A stretch of 11,928 bases of DNA from an uncultured Acidobacteriota bacterium (GTDB lineage: Bacteria; Acidobacteriota; Thermoanaerobaculia; Multivoradales; JAHEKO01), in NCBI GenBank assembly GCA_963713825.1, contig CAVQNG010000033.1:1-11928 (forward strand), in the 5' to 3' direction. Each line of letters starts with the position of its first letter. Position 1 is the stretch's first letter. The notes below the pieces were generated by a model. That model was not told the origin of the DNA. It was given only the letters and a program-made list of their open reading frames with translations, and did not search any database. Below, piece by piece: positions 1-11,884 of the stretch. Position numbers and translations under genes: made by a program.

Positions 1-84
1 GACCTCGATTCCGAAAGAGACGTCAGGAGCCCTCGAGCACTCACCACCTGGCTGCGGTCCTTGTGTGGGGACTGGTCAGTCAGT

Positions 85-224
85 CACTCCGCGGCTCCAG
101 TCGATCTGCGAGCCATCGAACCACTGAAGGGCTCTCCACTGGCGATCGACGTCTACATCTGGCTCACCTACTGGACGAGCTATCTGCGCCGACGGTGCAC
201 GATCCCACAAGCAAGTTCGGCGCG
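85..224 (+). pseudogene. repA: Degenerate fragment of a plasmid-type replication initiator (RepA_C-like, IncW/pBBR1-type Rep family)
   Basis: Frame 1 reads HSAAPVDLRAIEPLKGSPLAIDVYIWLTYWTSYLRRRCTIP, which I recognise as resembling the RepA_C C-terminal block (approx. PvDlra...Lk.SplalDlY.WLtYR..yL.....IpW..l..QFG). The expected QFG-like motif appears as KFGA in a different frame (213-224), so there is a deletion plus frameshift. No convincing start or continued similarity on either side. Confidence 0.65.
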
Positions 225-436
225 TCGCCAGCCGGCTCGCTACCGGCGGCGACAGACTCTCACTCTGATTGCGCGACAACAGGACTCAGGTCGCTCCCCC
301 ACCCCAGCGGGTGGTGTGCTGAAAGCGACCCTTTCGGTAGGGTCGAGGGGTCTGAAGCGAAAAGCTGATCTGTTCACCGGTTTCGTGCTGCGAGATCGGG
401 CGATATGTTGCTTGAGAGCTCTTCAGGGAGGGGAGC

Positions 437-1168
437 ATGAGCGACAAAGTAGCCACGACCCAGTGGAGCCAGGTCCTCGCCGCCAGAGACGGTTCCGACA
501 CCGAAGCTCGGGCGGCTCTGGAGAGCCTCTGCCAGACCTACTGGCAACCCCTTTACGCCTACATCCGACATCAGGGCTCGAGCCCTGAGGAAGCCAGCGA
601 CCTCACGCAGGGCTTCTTTGCCGAGCTCCTGGAGAAGGATTTCCTCGCGGATGTCGACCCCTCGAAAGGTCGGTTCCGCGCCTTCCTCCTGGCCTCGCTG
701 CGACACTTCCTGTCCCATCAGAGGGATCAGGCCCGCACGCTCAAACGGGGTGGTGGCACCCGCACCCTGTCGCTCGATACCGGCGTGGCTGAAAAGCGCT
801 ACTCGGGAGAGCCAGCCTCTGGGCAGACTCCAGAGGAGGTCTTCGAGCGGCGCTGGGCCATGACCGTACTCGACCGCGCTATGGATCGGCTTCGCAAGGA
901 GTCGACGGCAGACACTGATCCGAACCAGTTCGAGCTTCTCCGCCAGTATCTGACGGGCGGCGAGCCTCACTCGCCCTACAAGCAGGTCGCCCACTCCCTC
1001 GGGATGAGCGAAGGGGCCGTCAAGACGGCCGTCCACCGTCTGCGCAAGCAATACGGCCAATCCCTACGAACAGAAATCGCAGAAGTCGTGAGCAATCCCG
1101 CCGATGTCGACGACGAGGTCCGACATCTATTGGCGGTCGTTCGACCCCAATCAGGATCGGGGGAGTAA
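437..1168 (+). CDS. ECF-type RNA polymerase sigma-70 factor, Ser/Thr-kinase-associated type (243 aa)
   Basis: GGGAGGGGAG RBS just before the ATG. N-terminal TTQWSQVLAA motif; region 2 (ALESLCQTYWQPLYAYIR...EEASDLTQGFF...KGRFRAFL); region 4 HTH (YKQVAHSLGMSEGAVKTAVHRLRKQY); C-terminal VDDEVRHLL extension. Followed by a Ser/Thr kinase, with no anti-sigma gene in the window. Confidence 0.95.
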   Translation: MSDKVATTQWSQVLAARDGSDTEARAALESLCQTYWQPLYAYIRHQGSSPEEASDLTQGFFAELLEKDFLADVDPSKGRFRAFLLASLRHFLSHQRDQARTLKRGGGTRTLSLDTGVAEKRYSGEPASGQTPEEVFERRWAMTVLDRAMDRLRKESTADTDPNQFELLRQYLTGGEPHSPYKQVAHSLGMSEGAVKTAVHRLRKQYGQSLRTEIAEVVSNPADVDDEVRHLLAVVRPQSGSGE

Positions 1169-1193
1169 CCAGTAGTCGGCAATCCGTCTATTT
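1165..1193 (+). promoter_or_regulatory. Putative ECF-dependent promoter for the kinase gene (-35 GTAACC, N14, -10 CGTCTA)
   Basis: GTAACC (1165-1170, overlapping the sigma TAA stop), 14-nt spacer, CGTCTATTT (1185-1193). Fits the general ECF AAC/CGT promoter signature and recurs with the same spacing at 8711-8739. Confidence 0.6.
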
Positions 1194-1246
1194 CTCTCGA
1201 ACCTGACAACCGTGGAGGGCTTCCGGTTGGAAACGGTCGAGAGAGA
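1191..1246 (+). promoter_or_regulatory. Stem-loop covering the purine-rich RBS region of the kinase gene
   Basis: TTTCTCTCGA (1191-1200) pairs with TCGAGAGAGA (1237-1246), 10 bp with one G-U. Inner stems: CAACC/GGTTG (1207-1211/1225-1229) and GGAG/TTCC. The ATG is at 1248. Confidence 0.45.
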
Positions 1247-1247
1247 G

Positions 1248-2036
1248 ATGAACCCCGCACCGCTGAAGTGCTCGGCCTGCAATACCCCGCTGTCGCAGGA
1301 AGGCGACAGCGTTGGCCTGTGTCCGGGGTGTCTGCTGGAGTTGGCGCTCGATGACACTTCTTTCGAGGCCGAAGTCCTAGAAGATCCTGAAGAAGCGCCG
1401 ACCCTCCAATACTCCGGCTACACCTTTGAAGAAGGTCAGATTCAAGGCGAGCGGTATCGGGTCCGGTCGCTCCTCGGCCGGGGCGGCATGGGCGAGGTCT
1501 GGCGGGCCTACGACTTGAAGCTCCGCCAGGATGTGGCGCTCAAGGCCCTGCGAACCGAGCTGATCGAGGATTCCGACGCACTCGAAACGCTGCGCCAGGA
1601 AGTACGCACGGCTCGCGAGGTGATCTCCCCCAACGTCTGCCGCGTCTTCGACCTCCAAGAGCTCGACGGTCAAGAGCTGGTGTCGATGGAGTACATCGAC
1701 GGCACCACGCTGCAGGAGATTCTCAAAGAACGGTCTCCTCTAGACCTCGACGAGGCGAGAGAGATCGCCTCCCAATTCCTGGCCGGCCTCGAAGCCATCC
1801 ACGCTGCCGGCCTGGTCCACCGAGACATCAAGCCCGAAAACGTCATGGTCACCCGCACCGGGCGGGTTGTCGTCATGGACTTCGGCATCGCCAAGGGATT
1901 AGGCGATGGCAAAGGGGGTCTCATCGCCGGGACCCCGGCCTACATGTCCCCAGAGCAAGGCGAAGGGCGAGGAGCTCGATGCCCGCTCCGACGTCTTCTC
2001 CGCCGGTGTTGTGCTGGCGGAGATGGTGGAGCCTGA
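1248..2036 (+). CDS. 5' part of frameshifted gene: Zn-ribbon plus Hanks-type Ser/Thr kinase subdomains I-VIII
   Basis: ATG 1248 after GAGAGAG. Motifs: CSAC...CPGC, GRGGMGEV, VALK, HRDIKPEN (1818-1841), DFG (1878-1886), GTPAYMSPEQ (ends 1958). Kinase similarity stops after 1958 in this frame. Confidence 0.85.
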   Translation: MNPAPLKCSACNTPLSQEGDSVGLCPGCLLELALDDTSFEAEVLEDPEEAPTLQYSGYTFEEGQIQGERYRVRSLLGRGGMGEVWRAYDLKLRQDVALKALRTELIEDSDALETLRQEVRTAREVISPNVCRVFDLQELDGQELVSMEYIDGTTLQEILKERSPLDLDEAREIASQFLAGLEAIHAAGLVHRDIKPENVMVTRTGRVVVMDFGIAKGLGDGKGGLIAGTPAYMSPEQGEGRGARCPLRRLLRRCCAGGDGGA

Positions 2037-5000
2037 TGGGGTCCAAACCTTGGAGGATCGCCGGGGCCTCTGGGAGGCGCTTCACCAGAAGACTCCCGAG
2101 GTTGCAGAGACGCCCTGGTCGCGAGTCATCGGCCGGTGCATTGCCGGAGATCCGGACGGGCGCTATGAGAGCGCGGCGGAATTGGCAAGGGCCCTCGAAG
2201 AAGTCACTCTCCGGGCTGTCGGCGATGACACGGCACACCCCTACCCCGGGCTCTCCGCCTTTCAGGAAGAGGACGCCCAGTACTTCTTCGGCCGGGAGCT
2301 GGAAGTCGAGGCTCTGTGGAAGAAGCTGCGCCGGCCGTCTCTGCTGGCAGTGATCGGTCCCTCCGGAGCCGGCAAGAGCTCCTTCCTGCGTGCGGGCCTG
2401 CTGCCGACGCTGACCAACGGCTGGCAGGCGGTCATCACGACACCCGGCAACCGACCCTTCTCCAATCTGGCTCAGGCCCTGGCCCCGAAGCTGGGCGAGG
2501 CGACCGGCACCGCCGAGCTGTTGCTGCGCTTTGACGAACCAGACATCGCGATCGAACTGCTCGCCGACTGGCGAAAACAGTCCAGGCACGGCTTGGTAAT
2601 CCTCGATCAATTCGAGGAGCTCTTCACCCAGAACCCGGAAGCGGTCCAGGACTCCTTCGCCGAGCTCCTCGGGCGCCTCCCTCTCGAAGCCGATCTCTTC
2701 GTGCTGCTCTCCATGCGGGATGACTTCGTGATGCACTGCCATCGCTTCGAGGCCTTGCGACCCATCTTCTCGGAGCTCACGCCTCTCGACCCACCGTTGG
2801 GCTCCGCCCTGCGCCGTGCTCTCGTCGAGCCCGCCCTGCGCTGCGGCTATCGATTCGAGGAGGAAGCGATCATCGAAGAGATGCTCACCGAGGTCGAAGG
2901 CCAGCGGGGGGCCCTGCCTCTTCTCGCTTTCGCCGCGGCCCAACTCTGGGAGCGCCGCGACCGTGACACCGGACTCCTGACCCGCAAGAGCTACGAGCAG
3001 ATCGGCGGAGTGAGTGGTGCGCTCGCCCAACACGCCGAAGCGATGCTTGACTACGTCGGCGAGGCCAACGTGCCGATCGTTCGCGAGCTCTTCCGCAACC
3101 TCGTCACCGCTCAAGGCACTCGTGCGGCGAGGGACCGGGAGGAGCTCCTCTCCGTCTTCGACGGCGAGCAGCCGGCCGGCAGAGGCACCGGCCGCTTCAA
3201 GACCGATGTAGGGGCGGGGCTTGCCCCCGCCCGCGGTGATGAAACGTCGGAGGTACCACAACCACGGGCGCCCGCAAGGGGCGCCCCTACATCCACCCGA
3301 GAGGACGCCGCTGGCGTTCTCTCTTCCCTCATCGACGCCCGCCTCCTCACCTCCTACGAGGTTCCGCCTACCGAAGAAGCAGCCGAACCGCAGCATCGCA
3401 TCGAGATCGTCCACGAATCGCTGCTGTCGAACTGGCCTCGCCTGGTTCGGTGGCAAAGGCAGGATGCCGACAGCGCGCAGATGCGCGACGAACTCAGGAG
3501 TCAGGCGAAGCTCTGGGACGAGCATGGACGCTCGGAGGACTACCTCTGGACCGGCACCGCCTTCAAGGAGTACGAGCTCTGGCGTGAGCGCTACCCCGGG
3601 GGGCTCACCCAGATCGAAGAGACCTTCGCCAAAGCGATGACTACGCTCGCCGAGCGCCGCAAGCGGCGGCGGCGAGTCGCGATCGGTGCGGTGCTGATCA
3701 TTGCCATAGCAATCGCCACGGCGATGGGAGTTTTGTGGCGCCAGAGCGAGGCGGCTCGGCAACTGGCGGAGGCCGAGACTCTCCGCGCCGAAGCCGGCAA
3801 GCTCATTGCGCTGGGTGAGCTGGAGATCGATACCTATCCGACAGCGGCACTCGCCTGGGCTACCAAGAGTCTGGAGCTGGCGGACACCCTCGAAGGGCGA
3901 AGGCTCGCGCTGCGTGCGCTACAGCAGGGCCCGCCAGCAACCCTGCTCAGGGCGGGGCACGACCCCGGTGCCGAGGGCAACCAGATCCGCGAGCTCGCTT
4001 TCAGTCCGAGCGGTCAATGGCTTGCAACCTCCGGATCGGAGAACGCCGAACTCCGCTTCCATGACGGCAGTAGCCCGGTAGTCGTCGGCCACTACTCGCG
4101 CACTGGTCAGTGGCTCCAGATCGCCTTCGGAGGCGACGATCTGTTGATCACCGATCAAGGTGGTGACCTCCGCTGGTGGTCGATTCCGGGCGGAGACGAG
4201 CTTCGGCGGGCTGAGCGTGATCGAGGTCGACTCCACTGGCCAGCAGCGGGCGGATACTTCAGCTACTCGAAAGCCGGGGGACAGGTGTCGATGCAATTCT
4301 GGCCCTCTGGAGAGGGACCCGCAAAACCTGTGGGTTCGATGCCTACCTGGCAGGCCACCGCCATCGATGCATCGGGCTCCGGGATGACGTACAGCCGGGA
4401 GGGAACCATCTACTGGCGCTCTCTCGAGGATTGGAGCCAGCCTCCCCGCCGGCTGGCTGAGCATGACGAGACGGTTGTCGAGCTCACCTTCCACCCCGGA
4501 GGCGAGCGCGTCGCCGCTGTCGATGAGTCGGGCGAGGTTCGGATATGGCCGGTCATCGATGGCGCGAGAGAGCCGCTCCGATCCCTGCAAGCGGGCGAGC
4601 TACGCCAGATTCTCTACGACCCGAGCGGGCGCTGGCTTGCGGCCCAGGGAGTCGTGGAGGGCAGCCCGACCGTTCGGCTCTGGGATCTGCTTGCGCCTCA
4701 GGGCGCTGTGCCCATGACGCTGCGGAGAACCGACGACGTCTTCGCCCAGTCACTCGCCTTCCATCCCAGCAAGCCTTGGCTGGTCACGGCCAACATGAAC
4801 GGCGCCGGTTTCTGGCCGCTCGATACACCGTACCCCTGGACACTGACTGGTCACGAGGGATCGGTATTCGATGTCGCCTTCACCCCTGACGGGAAGTGGC
4901 TGATCTCCGCTGGGAGCGATGGCGTCCAAGCCTGGCCACTCGCCGATCAGAATAATCGTGCCTCTCGACCCCTTCTTCGAAAGGAACTCCGATTCGCCGA

Positions 5001-5910
5001 GATCGATATTCAATCTTCGGGCCGACACTTGGCAGTAGCCGCACAGGACGGCACCGTGCTAGTCATTCCGCTGACCGGAGCTCCCATTCGCAAATTGAGC
5101 GGCTTCGCTGAATCCGCCACCGCGGCTGGCATTCTCGTTGCCTTCAGCCCCGAAGGTCGGCTGCTCGCTGCGGTGCCAAGATTCGCTCCCCCACAAGAGT
5201 CTGTCATCCGGGTCTGGGATCTCGACTCGAACGAGATGCGGGTTCTTGGACCGGTTACGGGCCAATCTGCCTATCTGCAATTCGTCGACAATGACTCACT
5301 CCAGTGGAGTGGCGCGAGCCAGTCAGGTGAAGGGGGAGGTGAAAAGACCTTCAACCTGGGTGATGGGAGTATCGAGATCTCCGCGGATACGGGGTCCGAG
5401 TGGTTCAGAACTGTCAGTCGGAGTCGCACCTTCGCGATCAGTGTTGACAAGGACCCGAGCTCAGCGGAGGGTTTCGAACTGGTCCGACACAATCTCGACA
5501 CAGGTCAGCCGCAGGCCATCGCGACTCATGGAGACAACACCTGGGCCATTGGCTTGGATCGCTCGGACCGCTGGCTCGTTACTGGCGGTTACAGCGACGG
5601 CCTAGTACGGGTGGGACCGGTCTCCGGCGATGAGCCTCATCTTCTCTACGGTCACAGAGGATTGGTGCGGGCCGTAGCCGTCTCGCCCGACGGGCGATGG
5701 ATCGCCTCAGGAGGCGACGATGGAACGGTCCGTCTCTGGCCGATGCCGGATCTGGAGAAACCGCCTCTCCACACCCTGCCTCACGAAGAGCTGATCGCCA
5801 AGCTTCACTCCCTCACTAACCTCCGCGTGGTCGAAGATCCTGAATCCTCCACCGGCTGGAAGGTTGAAGACGGTCCCTTTCCGGGATGGAAGGAGGTGCC
5901 AAAGTGGTGA
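1960..5910 (+). CDS. 3' part of frameshifted gene: kinase C-lobe, nSTAND1-type P-loop NTPase, TM helix and WD40 beta-propeller repeats
   Basis: AKGEELDARSDVFSAGVVLAEM continues the kinase (subdomain IX), and RCIAGDPDGRY is subdomain XI. nSTAND1 signature PYPGLSAFQEEDAQYFFGRE (from 2239); Walker A GPSGAGKS (2356-2379); Walker B VILDQFEELF; SMRDDF; GALPLL; IEIVHESLLSNWPRL. RRKRRRR then a hydrophobic helix (3676-3738). WD40 units such as GHEGSVFDVAFTPDGKWLISAG and GHRGLVRAVAVSPDGRWIASGGDDGTVRLW. Confidence 0.9.
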   Translation, partial: AKGEELDARSDVFSAGVVLAEMVEPDGVQTLEDRRGLWEALHQKTPEVAETPWSRVIGRCIAGDPDGRYESAAELARALEEVTLRAVGDDTAHPYPGLSAFQEEDAQYFFGRELEVEALWKKLRRPSLLAVIGPSGAGKSSFLRAGLLPTLTNGWQAVITTPGNRPFSNLAQALAPKLGEATGTAELLLRFDEPDIAIELLADWRKQSRHGLVILDQFEELFTQNPEAVQDSFAELLGRLPLEADLFVLLSMRDDFVMHCHRFEALRPIFSELTPLDPPLGSALRRALVEPALRCGYRFEEEAIIEEMLTEVEGQRGALPLLAFAAAQLWERRDRDTGLLTRKSYEQIGGVSGALAQHAEAMLDYVGEANVPIVRELFRNLVTAQGTRAARDREELLSVFDGEQPAGRGTGRFKTDVGAGLAPARGDETSEVPQPRAPARGAPTSTREDAAGVLSSLIDARLLTSYEVPPTEEAAEPQHRIEIVHESLLSNWPRLVRWQRQDADSAQMRDELRSQAKLWDEHGRSEDYLWTGTAFKEYELWRERYPGGLTQIEETFAKAMTTLAERRKRRRRVAIGAVLIIAIAIATAMGVLWRQSEAARQLAEAETLRAEAGKLIALGELEIDTYPTAALAWATKSLELADTLEGRRLALRALQQGPPATLLRAGHDPGAEGNQIRELAFSPSGQWLATSGSENAELRFHDGSSPVVVGHYSRTGQWLQIAFGGDDLLITDQGGDLRWWSIPGGDELRRAERDRGRLHWPAAGGYFSYSKAGGQVSMQFWPSGEGPAKPVGSMPTWQATAIDASGSGMTYSREGTIYWRSLEDWSQPPRRLAEHDETVVELTFHPGGERVAAVDESGEVRIWPVIDGAREPLRSLQAGELRQILYDPSGRWLAAQGVVEGSPTVRLWDLLAPQGAVPMTLRRTDDVFAQSLAFHPSKPWLVTANMNGAGFWPLDTPYPWTLTGHEGSVFDVAFTPDGKWLISAGSDGVQAWPLADQNNRASRPLLRKELRFAEIDIQSSGRHLAVAAQDGTVLVIPLTGAPIRKLSGFAESATAAGILVAFSPEGRLLAAVPRFAPPQESVIRVWDLDSNEMRVLGPVTGQSAYLQFVDNDSLQWSGASQSGEGGGEKTFNLGDGSIEISADTGSEWFRTVSRSRTFAISVDKDPSSAEGFELVRHNLDTGQPQAIATHGDNTWAIGLDRSDRWLVTGGYSDGLVRVGPVSGDEPHLLYGHRGLVRAVAVSPDGRWIASGGDDGTVRLWPMPDLEKPPLHTLPHEELIAKLHSLTNLRVVEDPESSTGWKVEDGPFPGWKEVPKW
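3205..3293. repeat. Inverted pair of GTAG-family REP-like palindromes (REPIN-like) inside the STAND coding region
   Basis: Copy 1 (+, 3208-3232) is GTAG-GGGCGGGG-CTTGC-CCCCGCCC. Copy 2 (-, 3266-3290) is GTAG-GGGCGCCC-CTTGC-GGGCGCCC. They are 33 nt apart, and the outer flanks extend the inversion (GATGTAG...CTACATC). Confidence 0.8.
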
Positions 5911-8639
5911 GAACGTGCGCCAGAGCCCTACTTCTCATGCTGCTACTGGCTTCTCTGGCAGGAGCAGACACCGCCGGTCAGCTTTCCGGAGTGGTGACAG
6001 ACAACGATGGCGCGCCCCTGCCAGGGGCGATGGTGTCGGCGAGCTCCCCAACTCAAATCGGCGGAGACCAGCTCACGCAGACCGACGCAAGCGGATGGTT
6101 CCAATACCCACGGCTGGCGCCCGGCCTCTACATGGTGGTGATAACACTCGAGGGCTTCGCCACCCAGGAGCTCAAAGAAGTCCAGGTCAGGGTCGATCGC
6201 ATGACCCAGCTGAGGGTCTCCCTGCCCCTGGCGCGCTTCGCTGACACGGTGATCGTCACTGAGACGACACCGGTCTTGGATCCAGAGCAGGTGTTCACCG
6301 GCCAGACATTCACGAGCGAGTACATCCAAGAGACCCGGTCGAACTTCTTCGGGCTTCAGTATCAGGTCCCCGGTAGCTCAACGCCTTCGGGTGCCACAGA
6401 CGACTCGAATTGGCGTCAGATCTCGGGCTCGACTCCGCCCGACAACAGCTACTACCTGGACGGTGTTCAGGCCACGAGGTGGGACCAAAGGCTGCCGAAC
6501 ATGACGCTCGCCTTCCTGCCCTTCGATGCCTATCAGGAGGCTGTCAGCCATACTGCAGGCTTCGAAGCCGAATACGGTCAGGCCACGGGTGGGGTCATCA
6601 ACCTCGTCACCAAGTCGGGGGGCAATCGCTTCGCGGGCTCGGTCGACCTCAACTACACCGACACCAACCTCACCGCAGCGGGCGATCACTTCGACCCAGA
6701 GGACCGGGTTGCCGACGACCTCCGGCTCAACGCGACATTCGGCGGGCCGATCCTCCGAGACCGGCTCTGGTTCTTCTCCGCATTTCAGAACTGGTCCTAC
6801 AGCCGGACGCCGAGAGGGGCGCCCACGACCATCGAAGGTGGGGGCCCGACCTTCCTCGGCAAGCTGACATGGCAAGCGAGTCCCTCCTGGACTCTCATGG
6901 GAAGGCTGTCGAGCCAGTCGGGATTCGCAGAGAACTTCAATTCCTCGCCATTCAGGGCGCCGGAAGCGACAGGCCATTGGGATCTGGGCGAGGATCTCGG
7001 ATCCCTCGAGCTCGCGGGAGTGCTTTCCGACAATCTGCTCTGGAGCTTGCGCACCAGCCGAAGAGATGCGGAGGAAGCCGACGTCAGACCAGAAGACGGC
7101 GATCTTCTGAGCATCGGCCACTTCAACTTCATCACCGGTGAAGAGTATGGGAACTATTGGGGGCAGTTCTCTGACACGAGCAGCCAGAACCAGATCGAGA
7201 GCGACATCACGTGGTTCACTGATGAAGCCTGGGGATCCCACGTGATCAAGGCAGGCTTCGGCTACGGCGAGCCGCGGCTCACCAGCGAGTGGTGTTACAA
7301 CGGCAGCGGACAGCCGTGCGCGGTGGGAGTCGAAGGGTTTTCCTTCGAGGATGCCGTCGGCACCGCGGGCAGCCCGATTCCCAGTGCAATGTGGGTGGCA
7401 CAAGCATCGGGTCCAGCGGAATTTGGGGCGACCTACCTCGACGCCTACGCTCAGGATGCCTGGCGAGTCCTCCCGGGGCTAACTCTGAAGCTCGGATTGC
7501 GGTGGGACCAGGTCGTTCACGAGAACAACCTGAGAGAGGGGATCGCCGACTTCTCGAAGCTGCAGCCTCGCCTCGGGGTGGCCTGGGATGTGACCGGCAA
7601 TGGGCGCAACCTTCTTCGGGCCTCCTGGGGTCGCTTCATGAGTCCGGGAATCGGGTGGATGACGGACTCGACCAATGTGCTTCTCAATTCGGCCGAGGAG
7701 CTGTGGCTCTCGTGCTCCTCGGAGATAGGAATCACCGACCCCGGGGCCTGTGCCGCCTTGTCGGAGGCTCTCGGTGCCGGGTACCGACTCGATCCAGAAG
7801 GCTGGGACCCAGCCGGTTGGGTTCTCTTTCCGAGCCTCGTATTTGGATCGGAGCCCGCCGAAACCGTGAATGGTCTACGACCGAACTTGGTGGACCAGTG
7901 GATGATCGGCTTCGAGCGGGAGCTCTTCCGCCGCACCGCCTTCGAGGTCAGCTACATCAACAAGCAGGGCAAGGACTTCTTCGACGACACCTGCAACGGC
8001 AACCTGCCGGAGCCCTCCGTCGATGCCGACTGTGACTACTACGTGATCACGAATCTTCCGCAGATGAGATCGGAGTACGAGGCCCTCTGGCTGCGTGTCG
8101 AGAGCCGAGCCTTCGACTGGCTGCACTTGCTCGGGTCCTGGGTGATCGCGGACGCCAAGGGTTCGACCGACTTCAACAGCGGCATCACAGAGAACTTCGA
8201 CCAGTACCCGGTCCACTTCGAGAACCGCTTCGGGTATCTGTCCTCCCAGAGTCGGCACCGCTTCAAGCTCAGCGGCTTTGTACTACTGCCCTACGATTTC
8301 TCCGTCGCGGTCTTCGGTTGGTGGAATTCGGATTTTCGATGGACGCCAGTGGAACCAGCCAGAACGGTCGGCCCCGAGTTCTATGGCGAGGTCTTTTTCG
8401 AGCCGCGTGGCAACCGCAAAGAAGATGGCGTCTATCAGCTGGATCTCCAGGTCGGCAAGAGTTTTGGCCTCGGCCCCACCCGCCTGAAGCTCATCGCCAC
8501 CATCATCAACGTCTTCGACTCGGAGCGGCCGAGAGCCGTCTGCAACCGTGTCACCGGCTGCGGCGACCTCGACCTGGGCGACCCCATCGCCTGGCAGCTC
8601 CCCCGCCGCTACGAGCTGGGGCTGAGGGTGGAGTTCTAG
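5904..8639 (+). CDS. TonB-dependent receptor-like outer-membrane protein, Oar type, with N-terminal carboxypeptidase-regulatory-like domain
   Basis: Strong SD AAGGAGGT (5890-5897) favours GTG 5904 or GTG 5907 (GTGA overlap with the kinase stop) over ATG 5886. Signal peptide (LLLMLLLASLAGA); CarboxypepD_reg-like GQLSGVVTDNDGAPLPGAMV...LAPGLY...LEGF; plug end AGFEAEYGQATGGVINLVTKSGGNRFAGS; GGPILRDRLWFF; YAQDAWRV...LTLKLGLRWD; QPRLGVAWD; C-terminal beta-signal YELGLRVEF. Confidence 0.93.
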   Translation: MVRTCARALLLMLLLASLAGADTAGQLSGVVTDNDGAPLPGAMVSASSPTQIGGDQLTQTDASGWFQYPRLAPGLYMVVITLEGFATQELKEVQVRVDRMTQLRVSLPLARFADTVIVTETTPVLDPEQVFTGQTFTSEYIQETRSNFFGLQYQVPGSSTPSGATDDSNWRQISGSTPPDNSYYLDGVQATRWDQRLPNMTLAFLPFDAYQEAVSHTAGFEAEYGQATGGVINLVTKSGGNRFAGSVDLNYTDTNLTAAGDHFDPEDRVADDLRLNATFGGPILRDRLWFFSAFQNWSYSRTPRGAPTTIEGGGPTFLGKLTWQASPSWTLMGRLSSQSGFAENFNSSPFRAPEATGHWDLGEDLGSLELAGVLSDNLLWSLRTSRRDAEEADVRPEDGDLLSIGHFNFITGEEYGNYWGQFSDTSSQNQIESDITWFTDEAWGSHVIKAGFGYGEPRLTSEWCYNGSGQPCAVGVEGFSFEDAVGTAGSPIPSAMWVAQASGPAEFGATYLDAYAQDAWRVLPGLTLKLGLRWDQVVHENNLREGIADFSKLQPRLGVAWDVTGNGRNLLRASWGRFMSPGIGWMTDSTNVLLNSAEELWLSCSSEIGITDPGACAALSEALGAGYRLDPEGWDPAGWVLFPSLVFGSEPAETVNGLRPNLVDQWMIGFERELFRRTAFEVSYINKQGKDFFDDTCNGNLPEPSVDADCDYYVITNLPQMRSEYEALWLRVESRAFDWLHLLGSWVIADAKGSTDFNSGITENFDQYPVHFENRFGYLSSQSRHRFKLSGFVLLPYDFSVAVFGWWNSDFRWTPVEPARTVGPEFYGEVFFEPRGNRKEDGVYQLDLQVGKSFGLGPTRLKLIATIINVFDSERPRAVCNRVTGCGDLDLGDPIAWQLPRRYELGLRVEF

Positions 8640-8710
8640 AGGGCCGCCGAAGGGCAGCATCCTCTCCCCCAATACCCGGAGCTGGCTGTGGAGCAACGCA
8701 GGGCAGATCC

Positions 8711-8739
8711 GTGACATTTCTCTAGAAAATCGTCTATTT
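8711..8739 (+). promoter_or_regulatory. Putative ECF-dependent promoter (-35 GTGACA, N14, -10 CGTCTA)
   Basis: GTGACA (8711-8716), 14 nt, CGTCTATTT (8731-8739) in the intergenic gap, ending 24 nt before ATG 8764. Same architecture as 1165-1193. Confidence 0.6.
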
Positions 8740-8763
8740 GTTCCAGAGGGGGTTTCAAGTCCG

Positions 8764-9855
8764 ATGCTGGGAATCGCCGAACCGGGAATAGCGACCGAGT
8801 TTGGAGCTGCGGTTGAAGATAGGACGAGTGACGAGGTCGTCGGCATCAAGCTCTATCCGCCTCTCTCCGTATTGAAGACTGCGGCCCTGATGCTCGTGAC
8901 GCTGTCCTTTTACCAGATCTTCTGGTTCTACCGCACGGCCCGAGACGTACGCGAGGGGTTCGACATCTCACTCAAACCATGGAAATGGCCCTTTGCCACC
9001 TTGTTCGCGCTGGCGGCAGCAATTGCCGGAAGAAACCTGGCAGACCGGCTCGAGAGCTGGGCACTCGAGGTCTCAGCACCGAGGGCCAGGTTTTTCGACC
9101 CCTTGGTCATCGGGTTTGCGATATTCGTTCTCAGTGTTGCCGCATACGCGTCTGAACCGCTCTCGAATGACTGGTTGTTCTTTTCCGGGGCACTCGGCTT
9201 GTCAATCCCGTTCCTGCTGATGCAGCACCAACTGAATTTGATCAAGGATCGATACGACCCGAGTGTCTTCCGGACCGCCGCGAACCGGTACACCGGTAAG
9301 CAAATCGCCGCTCTCGCAGTCTTCGGTCTCATCGGCGCACTCAGCGTCGCCATCTTCGCGTTCGATGCTTGGCAGAGAAGAAGCGCAGAAGAAGTCGGTG
9401 TTGGAGAGGTGTTCAGTGATGACCAGAGCGGTTTCCAGGTCAGCATACAGGACGCGGACTGGTCGAGCGTCGATCCTGGCTATCTGAGCTACGAGTCCGC
9501 CATGGAATTCCTGGGACCTGACGAGTTCACCTGGGCAGCCGTCTTCTCCTATCCCAACACCGCCCTCGACGCCGTCATGGACACTCGAATCGGAATCGTC
9601 ACCAGTGAGTACCATGGCGCCAGCTGCACCCAATCCAAGTCCCTGGCGGAGAACGGCATGGACGTCGTTGGGCTCATCTACTGCACTGGGAGTGATTTCG
9701 CCAGTGATGAGTTCGCTTACGTGTCGCGGACGCTGGCCAGCGCTGACCGTGCCGCGGAGATCTTGGGCTTCACATCCGAGTACCCGAAGGGTGTCTTCAG
9801 CACGAAGGTGGCGAGGATCGAGAAGTTCGTCAAGGGATTGGAGCTGATCCCATGA
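8764..9855 (+). CDS. Hypothetical integral membrane protein: DUF4234-like N-terminal TM region plus soluble C-terminal domain (363 aa)
   Basis: LMLVTLSFYQIFWFYR resembles the DUF4234-type 'lsivTlGiY.lyW.Y' motif and is followed by a later 'Q..LN' motif. About 5 hydrophobic segments, then an acidic ~160-aa soluble domain with two Cys. The stop overlaps the next start (ATGA). Confidence 0.75.
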   Translation: MLGIAEPGIATEFGAAVEDRTSDEVVGIKLYPPLSVLKTAALMLVTLSFYQIFWFYRTARDVREGFDISLKPWKWPFATLFALAAAIAGRNLADRLESWALEVSAPRARFFDPLVIGFAIFVLSVAAYASEPLSNDWLFFSGALGLSIPFLLMQHQLNLIKDRYDPSVFRTAANRYTGKQIAALAVFGLIGALSVAIFAFDAWQRRSAEEVGVGEVFSDDQSGFQVSIQDADWSSVDPGYLSYESAMEFLGPDEFTWAAVFSYPNTALDAVMDTRIGIVTSEYHGASCTQSKSLAENGMDVVGLIYCTGSDFASDEFAYVSRTLASADRAAEILGFTSEYPKGVFSTKVARIEKFVKGLELIP

Positions 9856-11795
9856 AATGGCATGCTTCTCTCCTGGTCGTGATGAGCTTTGTCCTGCTGG
9901 GACTTGGTTCTCCCGACGCCCATGCCCGAGCGACTCGGATCAACGCGAACCTTACTTGGGCCTCTGCCGCAGAAGCTCCCAGGCTTCCTGAGGAGTTGGC
10001 AAATCTCATCGATTTCAGCGACCCCGGTCTTGACGAGAACCTCATCTGGCTGCTGCGATCGAATCGCGTCGATATCGATTCTGACACCGTGGTGACGACC
10101 AGTCAGCACATCATCAAATACCTCTCCAGCGAAGGCCTCGGCATCCTGGGAGAATTCCCCGTTCTGTACGATGCAGGAACAGACCACGTGACGGTGCAGC
10201 AGGCGCTGGTCATCGACTCTCTGGGTGTCGTGCACCTGGTCGACCCAACCACCGTGCAGGTCATCCCTCATGGGAGCGATCAGGTGTTCTCGGACACGAC
10301 CTACGCGGTCCTTCCATTCAAAGGCCTGAACGTCGGCTCGGTGGTGGTCGTCCGTTACACCACAACGACGGCACGAGACAAGTTACACGTTCCGTGGTTC
10401 CTGCAGTTCGAAGAACAGTCGCACTTTTCTCAGAGAAAGCTCGAATTCGAGGTTTCATGGTCGAGCGCCGACTTGAAACCGGCCTGGTCCTCCGAGTACG
10501 AGGGCACCGTCTGCCGACAGCCCGATGACCTGTCACTGATCTGCAGTGCCACAGATCTCCCGAAGTTTCCCGCCGATCCAGACGTCAATTACCCTGACCT
10601 GATCCCACACTTCACGGTGGCCGAGAACCTGAGCTGGGCCGAGGTGACCCGTTACACCAGCGACCTCATCGCTTCGGCCTACTCTGGTCACCCGGGCGTC
10701 GCGGCTACTGCCAGAAGATTGACCGACGGGCTGGAGACAGACCTCGAGAAGCTCGAAGCCTTGCATCGATTCGTGGTCAAGGAGATCCGCTATCTGGGGC
10801 TGGCGCACGGCCGCAGCGCCTACTTCCCGCACAGTACCGATGCGACACTCAGCCACCGCTATGGCGACTGCAAAGACAAGACTGCTCTGCTCATCGAGAT
10901 GCTCGACGCCATCGGCATCGAGAGTCATCCGGTCCTGGTCGCTACCGATCACCGTGACCCCGACAAACTCAGAGTTCCTTCCGGTGGCTACTTCGACCAC
11001 TTGATCGCGTGTGGTGACTCGAGAGATGGACAGCAATTCTGCGTTGACACCACTGATCCGTACACAGGAGTCGCCTCCTTGAATCCCTGGCTGCAGGGCC
11101 GAGTGGCCCTTCCCCTGTCCGGTGACAGCGGTCCCGTGCAATTGCCGGTCGAAACCTACTCCTGGTCCATCCAGGAGGTACTGAAGCGACGTCTCGAACC
11201 GGACGGTTCGGTGAGCGAGCAGAGCGAGGTGTCCTATGGCGGAGGGCTGGGAACCTCCTTTCGAGGCATCCTGACAGGGCTCGGTGAGGACGACCGAATC
11301 ACCTGGGCGATGGACGACTATCACAACACCATCTCTCCGAACACGGACCCGGAGTTCAGCTTCTCGGGGATCGAGTCGATCAACGACGATCTGGTGGTTT
11401 CCTGGACCGCCACCCAACTGAACGTAACCGATCCGTCAGGGTGCTACCTCTACGCCTTTGAGCCCGCGTGGCTCAACCAGGTACTTCCCAACTTGATCTC
11501 GAGCAATCAGCACCATGGCTACGAGTTTCAAGGCTTCCAATACAGCGGCAGAGCAATCCTCACGGTTGCCGACATCTGGGAAATCCAGGGAACCGGACCT
11601 CGGATCGAGTTCGAATCCGATTACGGGACGATGCGGCGGCAGTATGAAACTCGCGGCAATCGGGTCGTCGTCCGCACCGAGGTCGAGCTGCCCTACACCT
11701 TCGTCCCCCTCGACGAGCTCGAGAAGTTCAATCGATTCCTGAAAATCCTGATGACCGAGAACCGATTGAGTCTTCGTGCACACTTCAAGCGCTAG
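9852..11795 (+). CDS. Exported DUF3857 / transglutaminase-like domain protein (647 aa)
   Basis: Signal peptide ending AHA. DUF3857-like segment (VFSDTTYAVLPFKGLNVGSVVVVRY). Transglutaminase-like core FVVKEIRY...RYGDCKDKTALLIEML (Cys 10869), FDHLI (His 10998), VDTT (Asp 11046). C-terminal beta-rich domain. Tandem TAG TAA stops. Confidence 0.92.
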   Translation: MKWHASLLVVMSFVLLGLGSPDAHARATRINANLTWASAAEAPRLPEELANLIDFSDPGLDENLIWLLRSNRVDIDSDTVVTTSQHIIKYLSSEGLGILGEFPVLYDAGTDHVTVQQALVIDSLGVVHLVDPTTVQVIPHGSDQVFSDTTYAVLPFKGLNVGSVVVVRYTTTTARDKLHVPWFLQFEEQSHFSQRKLEFEVSWSSADLKPAWSSEYEGTVCRQPDDLSLICSATDLPKFPADPDVNYPDLIPHFTVAENLSWAEVTRYTSDLIASAYSGHPGVAATARRLTDGLETDLEKLEALHRFVVKEIRYLGLAHGRSAYFPHSTDATLSHRYGDCKDKTALLIEMLDAIGIESHPVLVATDHRDPDKLRVPSGGYFDHLIACGDSRDGQQFCVDTTDPYTGVASLNPWLQGRVALPLSGDSGPVQLPVETYSWSIQEVLKRRLEPDGSVSEQSEVSYGGGLGTSFRGILTGLGEDDRITWAMDDYHNTISPNTDPEFSFSGIESINDDLVVSWTATQLNVTDPSGCYLYAFEPAWLNQVLPNLISSNQHHGYEFQGFQYSGRAILTVADIWEIQGTGPRIEFESDYGTMRRQYETRGNRVVVRTEVELPYTFVPLDELEKFNRFLKILMTENRLSLRAHFKR

Positions 11796-11864
11796 TAAGG
11801 AATCCGAGACTCGACTCTGCAATAGGAAGTGGCAGTCGCTTTCGGACCCTGAGGACGGTGCGCA

Positions 11865-11884
11865 GACGTTTCCGCGGAAACGTC
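11865..11884. repeat. Perfect 20-bp palindrome
   Basis: GACGTTTCCGCGGAAACGTC equals its own reverse complement and lies 69 nt downstream of the last stop codon. Confidence 0.8.

Follow-up and report, generated by a model that had tools for sequence, protein, structure and literature searches.

An ECF sigma factor, a transmembrane STAND receptor kinase, and an Oar-like TonB-dependent receptor as a putative envelope-signaling module in Acidobacteriota

Gene content and architecture of the receptor kinase

The DNA analyzed here (hereafter "the window") is an entire contig of 11,928 b (C33; GenBank CAVQNG010000033.1) from the genome of an uncultured Acidobacteriota bacterium, assembled in 38 contigs and 5.4 Mb. 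Positions 437–11795 are occupied by five genes, all on the plus strand, the first three of which encode an extracytoplasmic function (ECF) sigma factor, a large receptor kinase with a STAND (signal transduction ATPase with numerous domains) module, and an Oar-like TonB-dependent receptor (TBDR). A first-pass annotation, made from the sequence alone, had placed these three genes at the coordinates at which we found them. Their features are as follows:

437–1168, plus strand: ECF sigma factor, 243 aa (Pfam and NCBIfam: Sigma70_r2, Sigma70_ECF, TIGR02937)
1248–5910, plus strand: receptor kinase gene (zinc ribbon, Hanks kinase, nSTAND1, transmembrane helix, double WD40 propeller), in two frames in the assembly
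1269–1331, plus strand: Cys4 zinc ribbon (CxxC, 13 residues, CxxC) at the kinase N-terminus, from the translation
1455–2214, plus strand: Hanks-type Ser/Thr kinase domain, with G-loop, VALK, HRD, DFG, and SPE motifs all present
1959–1961, plus strand: extra-base site splitting the kinase gene, from reading frames, short-read contigs, and an ortholog
2239–3147, plus strand: nSTAND1 NTPase, best-scoring stretch (PF20703, 319 bits vs a cut-off of 27.1)
3676–3732, plus strand: single transmembrane helix (hydropathy 2.64; 2.39 in the paralog)
3733–5907, plus strand: predicted periplasmic region with juxtamembrane helices, two beta-propellers, and a C-terminal tail, from AlphaFold2, Foldseek, and alignment
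5886–8639, plus strand: Oar-like TBDR with a signal peptide, from Pfam, hydropathy, and sequence

The kinase gene probably starts with the ATG at 1248, which leaves an intergenic distance of 79 nt from the ECF gene, while the TBDR frame offers starts at 5886 (ATG), 5904 (GTG), and 5907 (GTG), with a Shine-Dalgarno sequence (AAGGAGG) at 5890–5896 and the kinase stop codon at 5908–5910. All candidate TBDR starts thus overlap the kinase stop or lie a little upstream of it, as had been read from the sequence at first pass. The short gap between the ECF and kinase genes, together with a kinase stop that overlaps TBDR starts behind a strong Shine-Dalgarno sequence, fits a single transcript. A sigma-70 scan returned no promoter-like site, and four terminator-like sites were found where 6.7 were expected. 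The same genome holds an intact paralogous locus (L011, on contig C14) with the same order of ECF, kinase-nSTAND1-WD40 (1528 aa), and TBDR genes, for which identity to the window is 79% in the ECF, 46–74% across segments of the kinase-nSTAND1-WD40 protein, and 46% in the TBDR. A shared promoter motif upstream of the ECF gene was considered and set aside: only the window, this paralog, and a same-genus ortholog (L093) align there, which may be plain homology.

The domain order of the receptor kinase is clear from its sequence. The zinc ribbon, read in the translation, matched no Pfam family at E < 0.05. The nSTAND1 NTPase carries a Walker A motif (GPSGAGKSS) and a Walker B motif of the hhhhDQFEE type, and an RRKRRRR stretch lies just N-terminal of the transmembrane helix. 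This run of arginine and lysine is predicted to place the C-terminal part of the protein outside the cytoplasm. That part comprises ~725 residues of WD40 type after the helix, modeled by AlphaFold2 as a helical stalk, two beta-propellers (at about 3940–5742), and a short tail (pLDDT 89, pTM 0.87), and Foldseek matches of the propeller region were to tandem 7-bladed propellers and the Apaf-1 sensor. The propellers are predicted to be periplasmic because of the positive-inside rule and because both the kinase and the NTPase need ATP. A hydrophobic helix directly follows nSTAND1 in 62 of 80 nSTAND1 relatives (L013–L092), including ones from cyanobacteria, Chloroflexi, and Actinobacteria, so that a membrane-spanning STAND design is a trait of the family and not a peculiarity of this locus; a kinase is fused or adjacent upstream in 39 of the 80.

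Two observations concern the WD40 region itself. A tail of ~55 residues after the last blade (window 5743–5907), ending in GPFPGW..VP.W, is nearly invariant across 22 relatives even though the propellers diverge, and has no Pfam match. Tandem DNA repeats were looked for in the WD40 region and none were found.

The kinase gene, first described as one open reading frame, is split in the assembly by a 1-base frameshift near 1959–1961. The kinase N-lobe (Pkinase profile positions 1–167) lies in frame 1212–2036, and the C-lobe and the rest of the protein in frame 1906–5910, the shift being +1 and located just after the SPEQ motif. In Logan contigs from two runs of one sample, one base is absent at 1961 and the frame is restored (matches of 648 nt with 1 mismatch and of 151 nt with 0 mismatches). 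In run X1, the shorter form accounts for 4.02 of a depth of 6.92, and the remaining 2.9 does not show it. The same-genus ortholog is in frame through this site and has two frame breaks at other places. Over the WD40 and TBDR parts of the window, cover in the four runs was patchy, which argues neither way. The assembly is also redundant, as contig C38 (12,797 b) is 99.992% identical to C14:89222–102018 (loci L012 and L011, respectively), so that the paralogous ECF/kinase/TBDR locus occurs twice in it, as an assembly duplicate. Because two short-read contigs restore the frame, the ortholog is in frame at the site, and the assembly is redundant, the frameshift is probably an assembly indel. The window copy could instead be a decaying pseudogene, with only the paralog functional, given that the frameshift falls inside the kinase domain, that part of the X1 depth lacks the shorter form, and that the ortholog carries breaks of its own. 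We consider this unlikely, since the frame-restoring short-read contigs are near-identical to the window, no other break interrupts the 4.6-kb gene, whose catalytic motifs are all intact, and, beyond the near-perfect C38/C14 redundancy, frame breaks are common in related loci from metagenome-assembled genomes.

The sigma factor and its kinase partner across genomes

Six-frame searches with FecR (PF04773) and zf-HC2 (PF13490) gave no match on contig C33, with 2 and 13 matches, respectively, elsewhere in the genome. The window thus lacks FecR or another recognizable anti-sigma factor, in agreement with the first-pass annotation. Relatives of the ECF were present in 68 of the 401 Acidobacteriota genomes sampled (a tally that includes genomes G152 and G024, neither of which has loci in the fetched set). 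A Ser/Thr kinase was found in 52 of 71 related ECF loci, either directly downstream of the ECF (29 loci), divergent and upstream (7), upstream on the same strand (3), or elsewhere in the locus (13); no kinase was found in 18 loci, and one was uninformative. The data support the ECF and the kinase as a conserved pair without a recognizable anti-sigma factor. Sensor domains on the partner kinases vary and include CHASE2, TPR, PD40/WD40, and RDD, which points to a conserved core of ECF and zinc-ribbon kinase on which sensors are swappable.

The zinc ribbon itself tracks the sigma factor. When co-occurrence was scored within 4 kb and two surveys were pooled, 44 cases had both ribbon and ECF, 3 the ribbon only, 12 the ECF only (two of these being frame-broken genes), and 62 neither. 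Among STAND-fused kinases (first survey), 5 had both and 40 neither, the one apparent exception being a frame-broken gene, and a zinc ribbon was found in none of the 40 STAND-fused kinases without an ECF. From this co-occurrence, we infer that the N-terminal zinc ribbon docks the ECF sigma factor. That the ECF and the kinase are functional partners is, in our view, very probable.

Residue conservation in the ECF was assessed in an alignment of 75 family sequences. The sigma-2.2 motif of the window ECF reads E-A-S-D-L-T-Q, and its sigma2–sigma4 linker contains the motifs KRGGG and T-P-E. Across the family, D55 is invariant (75/75), whereas several residues occur at position 54 (Q, R, E, and others). 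S54 was accordingly rejected as a conserved phospho-acceptor, as the paralog has Met there and the family varies. Conserved candidate Ser/Thr residues are T57 (63/75), S112 (50/75), and a T/S at 131 with a subsequent Pro (67 and 72 of 75, respectively). The nearest Atlas clusters to this ECF are mostly from Verrucomicrobiota and Pseudomonadota.

Several loci in the surveys showed other arrangements. At four ECF loci without a kinase (L096, L100, L105, and L109), a gene for a retropepsin-like aspartyl protease repeatedly adjoins the ECF, one copy including a PDZ domain. Ahead of a kinase-nSTAND1-WD40 gene without an ECF lies a small regulator (L029:8360–9004) that combines Trans_reg_C (winged-helix) and FHA (phospho-Thr-binding) domains, and that may represent an alternative output of the kinase. 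Finally, the whole kinase-nSTAND1-WD40 gene is duplicated in tandem in L021 and L032, each L032 copy with its own ECF.

Linkage of the TonB-dependent receptor and proposed mechanism

In the window TBDR, Pfam (E up to 0.01) identified CarboxypepD_reg (59.7 bits) and OMP_b-brl_4 (136 bits), along with a weak Plug match (17.4 bits vs a cut-off of 23.9) and no STN signaling domain. We then evaluated the association of TBDRs with kinase-nSTAND1-TM-WD40 genes whose STAND part is ≥41% identical to that of the window. This yielded 27 informative loci, including the window, its paralog, and three same-genus loci, while another six are cut off too soon to be scored. In 14 of the 27, the gene immediately next to the kinase encodes an Oar-like TBDR. 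It is co-directional in 10 (the window, L011, L014, L020, L021, L031, L034, L035, L093, and L098, the last with the TBDR placed between ECF and kinase), convergent in 2 (L017 and L019), and divergent in 2 (L018 and L036); the calls at L034, L036, L093, and L098 come from tblastn alone. For comparison, the genome of the window holds 8 distinct TBDR-sized frames with CarboxypepD_reg in 5.4 Mb, 2 of them at the two kinase loci, i.e., a background rate near 0.2% per neighbor, and among 69 non-STAND ECF loci no TBDR was found by tblastn and one by Pfam among 77 neighbor proteins (L140).

These counts support the conclusion that a TBDR adjoins this kinase type far above chance. One could still ascribe the adjacency to chance or neutral gene order, as almost half of the loci have no TBDR and the adjacent TBDRs are polyphyletic. 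However, 14 of 27 stands against the genomic background and against about 1 of 69 control ECF loci, and the adjacency is also seen with TBDRs that are not orthologous and, in L098, with another gene order. We regard this explanation as highly improbable. The first-pass annotation had anticipated a conserved adjacent TBDR coupled to the ECF and kinase; the enrichment bears this out in part, as the TBDR is missing from the other 13 loci and is not tied to the ECF. Indeed, seven TBDR-linked kinases have no upstream ECF (L017–L021, L031, and L035), which indicates two overlapping pairings and not one obligate trio.

The adjacent TBDRs fall in at least three lineages of the Oar-like family in a quick tree with long branches, where the window TBDR forms one clade with those of L011 and L021; on that tree, a single specialized clade of kinase-adjacent TBDRs was rejected. 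The same-genus ortholog retains a TBDR in place, of a different lineage and 24% identical to that of the window, and the genome of the window also contains an ortholog of this L093 TBDR, on C14 at a distance of ~60 kb from the paralogous locus. A TBDR kept in place at such low identity suggests that the adjacency persists while the TBDR itself is exchanged, and this speaks for function. We consider a functional tie between the TBDR and this kinase type somewhat more probable than not.

A simpler relation would be that the kinase senses an unrelated periplasmic cue and that the TBDR is a mere gene of the ECF regulon or operon, without physical or signaling contact with the propellers. Consistent with this, the kinase-adjacent TBDRs are polyphyletic and replaceable, propeller and TBDR identities do not co-vary, and the window TBDR has no STN domain, with Pfam giving just CarboxypepD_reg and the barrel. 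On the other hand, the STAND-WD40 kinase type has an adjacent TBDR also at the seven loci without an upstream ECF, and the ECF family as a whole does not show this adjacency, its non-STAND loci having yielded 0 TBDRs by tblastn and 1 by Pfam. We see a role of the TBDR as output alone as a minority possibility.

Our favored explanation, which we rate as a little better than an even bet, is that the unit is a co-transcribed envelope-signaling module. In this module, the giant protein would be a transmembrane STAND receptor kinase that binds an envelope cue through its two periplasmic WD40 propellers. The cytoplasmic nSTAND1 modules would then cluster, or oligomerize in a nucleotide-dependent manner, and so bring the Hanks kinase domains together and activate them. 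The kinase, holding its cognate ECF through the N-terminal zinc ribbon, would phosphorylate this sigma factor and thereby switch on the operon at the level of transcription. The outer-membrane partner of the module would be the Oar-like TBDR, its gene being coupled in translation to that of the kinase, and this TBDR would be at least a co-expressed output and possibly also the source of the cue.

Several observations weigh against this explanation. On the TBDR side, no adjacent TBDR is found in 13 of the 27 informative loci, one of which (L013) has an ECF. On the tree, kinase-adjacent TBDRs cluster no better than randomly labeled ones (a value as low arose in 127 of 500 shuffles), and we see no sign that kinase and TBDR are co-inherited as one module. 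Identities to the window also do not track between propellers and TBDR (~50% and 24% in L093, 47% and 46% in L011, 35% and 50% in the second copy of L021). The surveyed loci are moreover related to each other, so that the counts overstate independence. On the kinase and ECF side, the window kinase gene is frame-broken in the assembly and its same-genus ortholog has two other breaks, the 75-sequence alignment has no conserved phospho-acceptor at the position used in the ECF43 sigma factors EcfP and EcfK (see below), and the ECF keeps acidic residues that ECF43 lacks. The idea that WD40 region and TBDR are swapped together as a cassette, raised by the mosaic ortholog L093, was discarded, as identities do not co-vary across loci.

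Within the envelope-signaling explanation, the nature of the input deserves separate consideration. The first-pass annotation had proposed a Fec-like mechanism in which a periplasmic propeller senses the TBDR or its cargo, and this mechanism is possible but unsupported. For the putative contact, a complex prediction between the propellers (residues 20–744, alignment A2) and the TBDR N-terminal domain (residues 27–150, alignment A3) returned a score of 0.00 (mark 0.32), which is evidence neither way. In our estimate, sensing of the TBDR or of its cargo as the input is improbable. A more elaborate form would have an apoptosome-like transmembrane receptor kinase replace the anti-sigma factor, with propellers that read the state or traffic of the TBDR, STAND oligomerization that transmits this across the inner membrane, and phosphorylation of the ribbon-docked ECF; in one version, the receptor kinase would be a guard of the TBDR entry gate. 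We likewise consider this form improbable.

A related alternative is an NLR-like guard of the envelope, which would sense foreign proteins, such as parts of bacteriocins or phages, entering via the TBDR, and would trigger an ECF-driven defense. The nSTAND1 family, to which the kinase has a clear match, was defined among NTP-dependent conflict systems. The propellers are also the most divergent segment (~50% identity between same-genus orthologs vs 89–96% for the kinase), and their fold resembles the sensor propellers of Apaf-1. Conversely, Pfam and NCBIfam scans found no defense genes in the window (the PADLOC library was not scanned), the WD40 DNA is without a repeat-shuffling signature, and the output is a sigma factor and not a death effector. 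We regard a defensive role as very unlikely.

To our knowledge, kinase-controlled ECF sigma factors have been characterized in only two proteobacterial cases. The family described here offers a modular natural series, in which one core of ECF and zinc-ribbon kinase is combined with different sensors, and in one branch of which an NLR-type NTPase is inserted between kinase and membrane with a TBDR adjoining. If the envelope-signaling explanation is true, bacteria would use STAND oligomerization for signaling across a membrane, Fec-type surface signaling would have a kinase-based counterpart in Acidobacteriota, and the zinc ribbon would be a concrete, testable docking element.

Flanking genes and comparison with known systems

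Two further genes complete the window downstream of the TBDR:

8764–9855, plus strand: 363-aa membrane protein (three hydrophobic helices, weak DUF4234 match)
9852–11795, plus strand: secreted DUF3857/transglutaminase-like (transglutaminase-core) protein, from Pfam

These genes overlap by 4 nt and as such look like a separate small operon. They are not conserved at the paralogous locus, where a gene for an FG-GAP protein stands instead. At the contig start, an open frame (window 1–588) has a sub-threshold RepA_C match (22.6 bits vs a cut-off of 26), and similarity to the same-genus ortholog L093 starts only at window 296. Both the paralogous locus (L011:1216–2538) and the ortholog (L093:10852–12174) have a DUF222-HNH endonuclease gene on their downstream side, at 81% nucleotide identity. 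The last bases of the window (11851–11884) match this gene, which may occur in repeated copies and so interrupt the assembly at this point.

Among described systems, the closest layout is that of ECF62 in Planctomycetes, in which the gene at position +1 encodes a Ser/Thr kinase with an N-terminal zinc finger, one transmembrane helix, and WD repeats (Jogler 2012, as cited in Casas-Pastor 2021, PMC7826278). By this description, both loci encode an ECF followed by a zinc-finger kinase, and the window kinase likewise carries an N-terminal zinc ribbon, a single transmembrane helix, and WD repeats; both also lack an anti-sigma factor and are known from genome comparison only. They differ in that ECF62 is reported as 100% Planctomycetes, whereas the window is from Acidobacteriota, and in that the ECF62 passages of PMC7826278 mention neither a STAND NTPase nor a TBDR, both of which are encoded in the window. 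A literature search for this exact layout found nothing on it among the titles listed. The first-pass annotation knew of no characterized pathway with this layout, which needs qualification: the kinase layout had already been described from genomes for ECF62, and the nSTAND1 module and the TBDR are what is newly recognized. Likewise, the passages of PMC11032199 on Planctomycetota membrane Ser/Thr kinases describe periplasmic WD40 or TPR arrays, and a cytoplasmic kinase, a single transmembrane helix, and long WD40 arrays predicted to be periplasmic are shared with the window; unlike the window, these passages note no STAND module, ECF pairing, or TBDR.

The ECF43 sigma factors EcfP (Vibrio parahaemolyticus) and EcfK (Xanthomonas citri), which the first-pass annotation had invoked as a model, are described as phosphorylated directly by PknT and PknS, respectively, and as having lost the acidic DAED motif, with a phospho-Thr acceptor at its third position (PMC13147305, PMC8999054). 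As in these cases, where the kinase is activating, the window combines a sigma2 and sigma4 ECF with an adjacent, cognate, single-pass Hanks kinase and no anti-sigma factor, and the ECFs share a Sigma70_ECF Pfam match and a Ser/Thr-rich linker after the KRGG motif. However, where ECF43 lacks the acidic DAED, the window reads E-A-S-D, and its family keeps [ED]-A-x-D with D55 invariant and the acceptor position variable. Since the acidic sigma-2.2 motif is kept, the window ECF is not of the EcfP/EcfK type. The kinases differ as well, those of ECF43 being described in these sources with periplasmic TPRs and with no STAND module or TBDR partner reported, whereas the window kinase has nSTAND1 and WD40.

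Two other systems resemble parts of the module. In FecI-FecR-FecA, as in the window, an ECF and a TBDR are encoded alongside an inner-membrane protein with one membrane pass and a periplasmic domain, but the window has no FecR, its TBDR has no STN, and its transducer is a kinase-NTPase and not an anti-sigma factor. STAND proteins of the Apaf-1/NLR type and nSTAND1 (PF20703) share with the window kinase the succession of an effector domain, a P-loop STAND NTPase, and a tandem WD40 propeller sensor; in the window, by contrast, a transmembrane helix parts the NTPase from the sensor, which is accordingly predicted to be extracytoplasmic, as is the case for the helix position in 62 of the 80 nSTAND1 relatives. 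Overall, the module is real and conserved, and is a variant of the kinase-linked ECF kind, with the nSTAND1 switch and the frequent coupling to an Oar-like TBDR as its newly recognized features.

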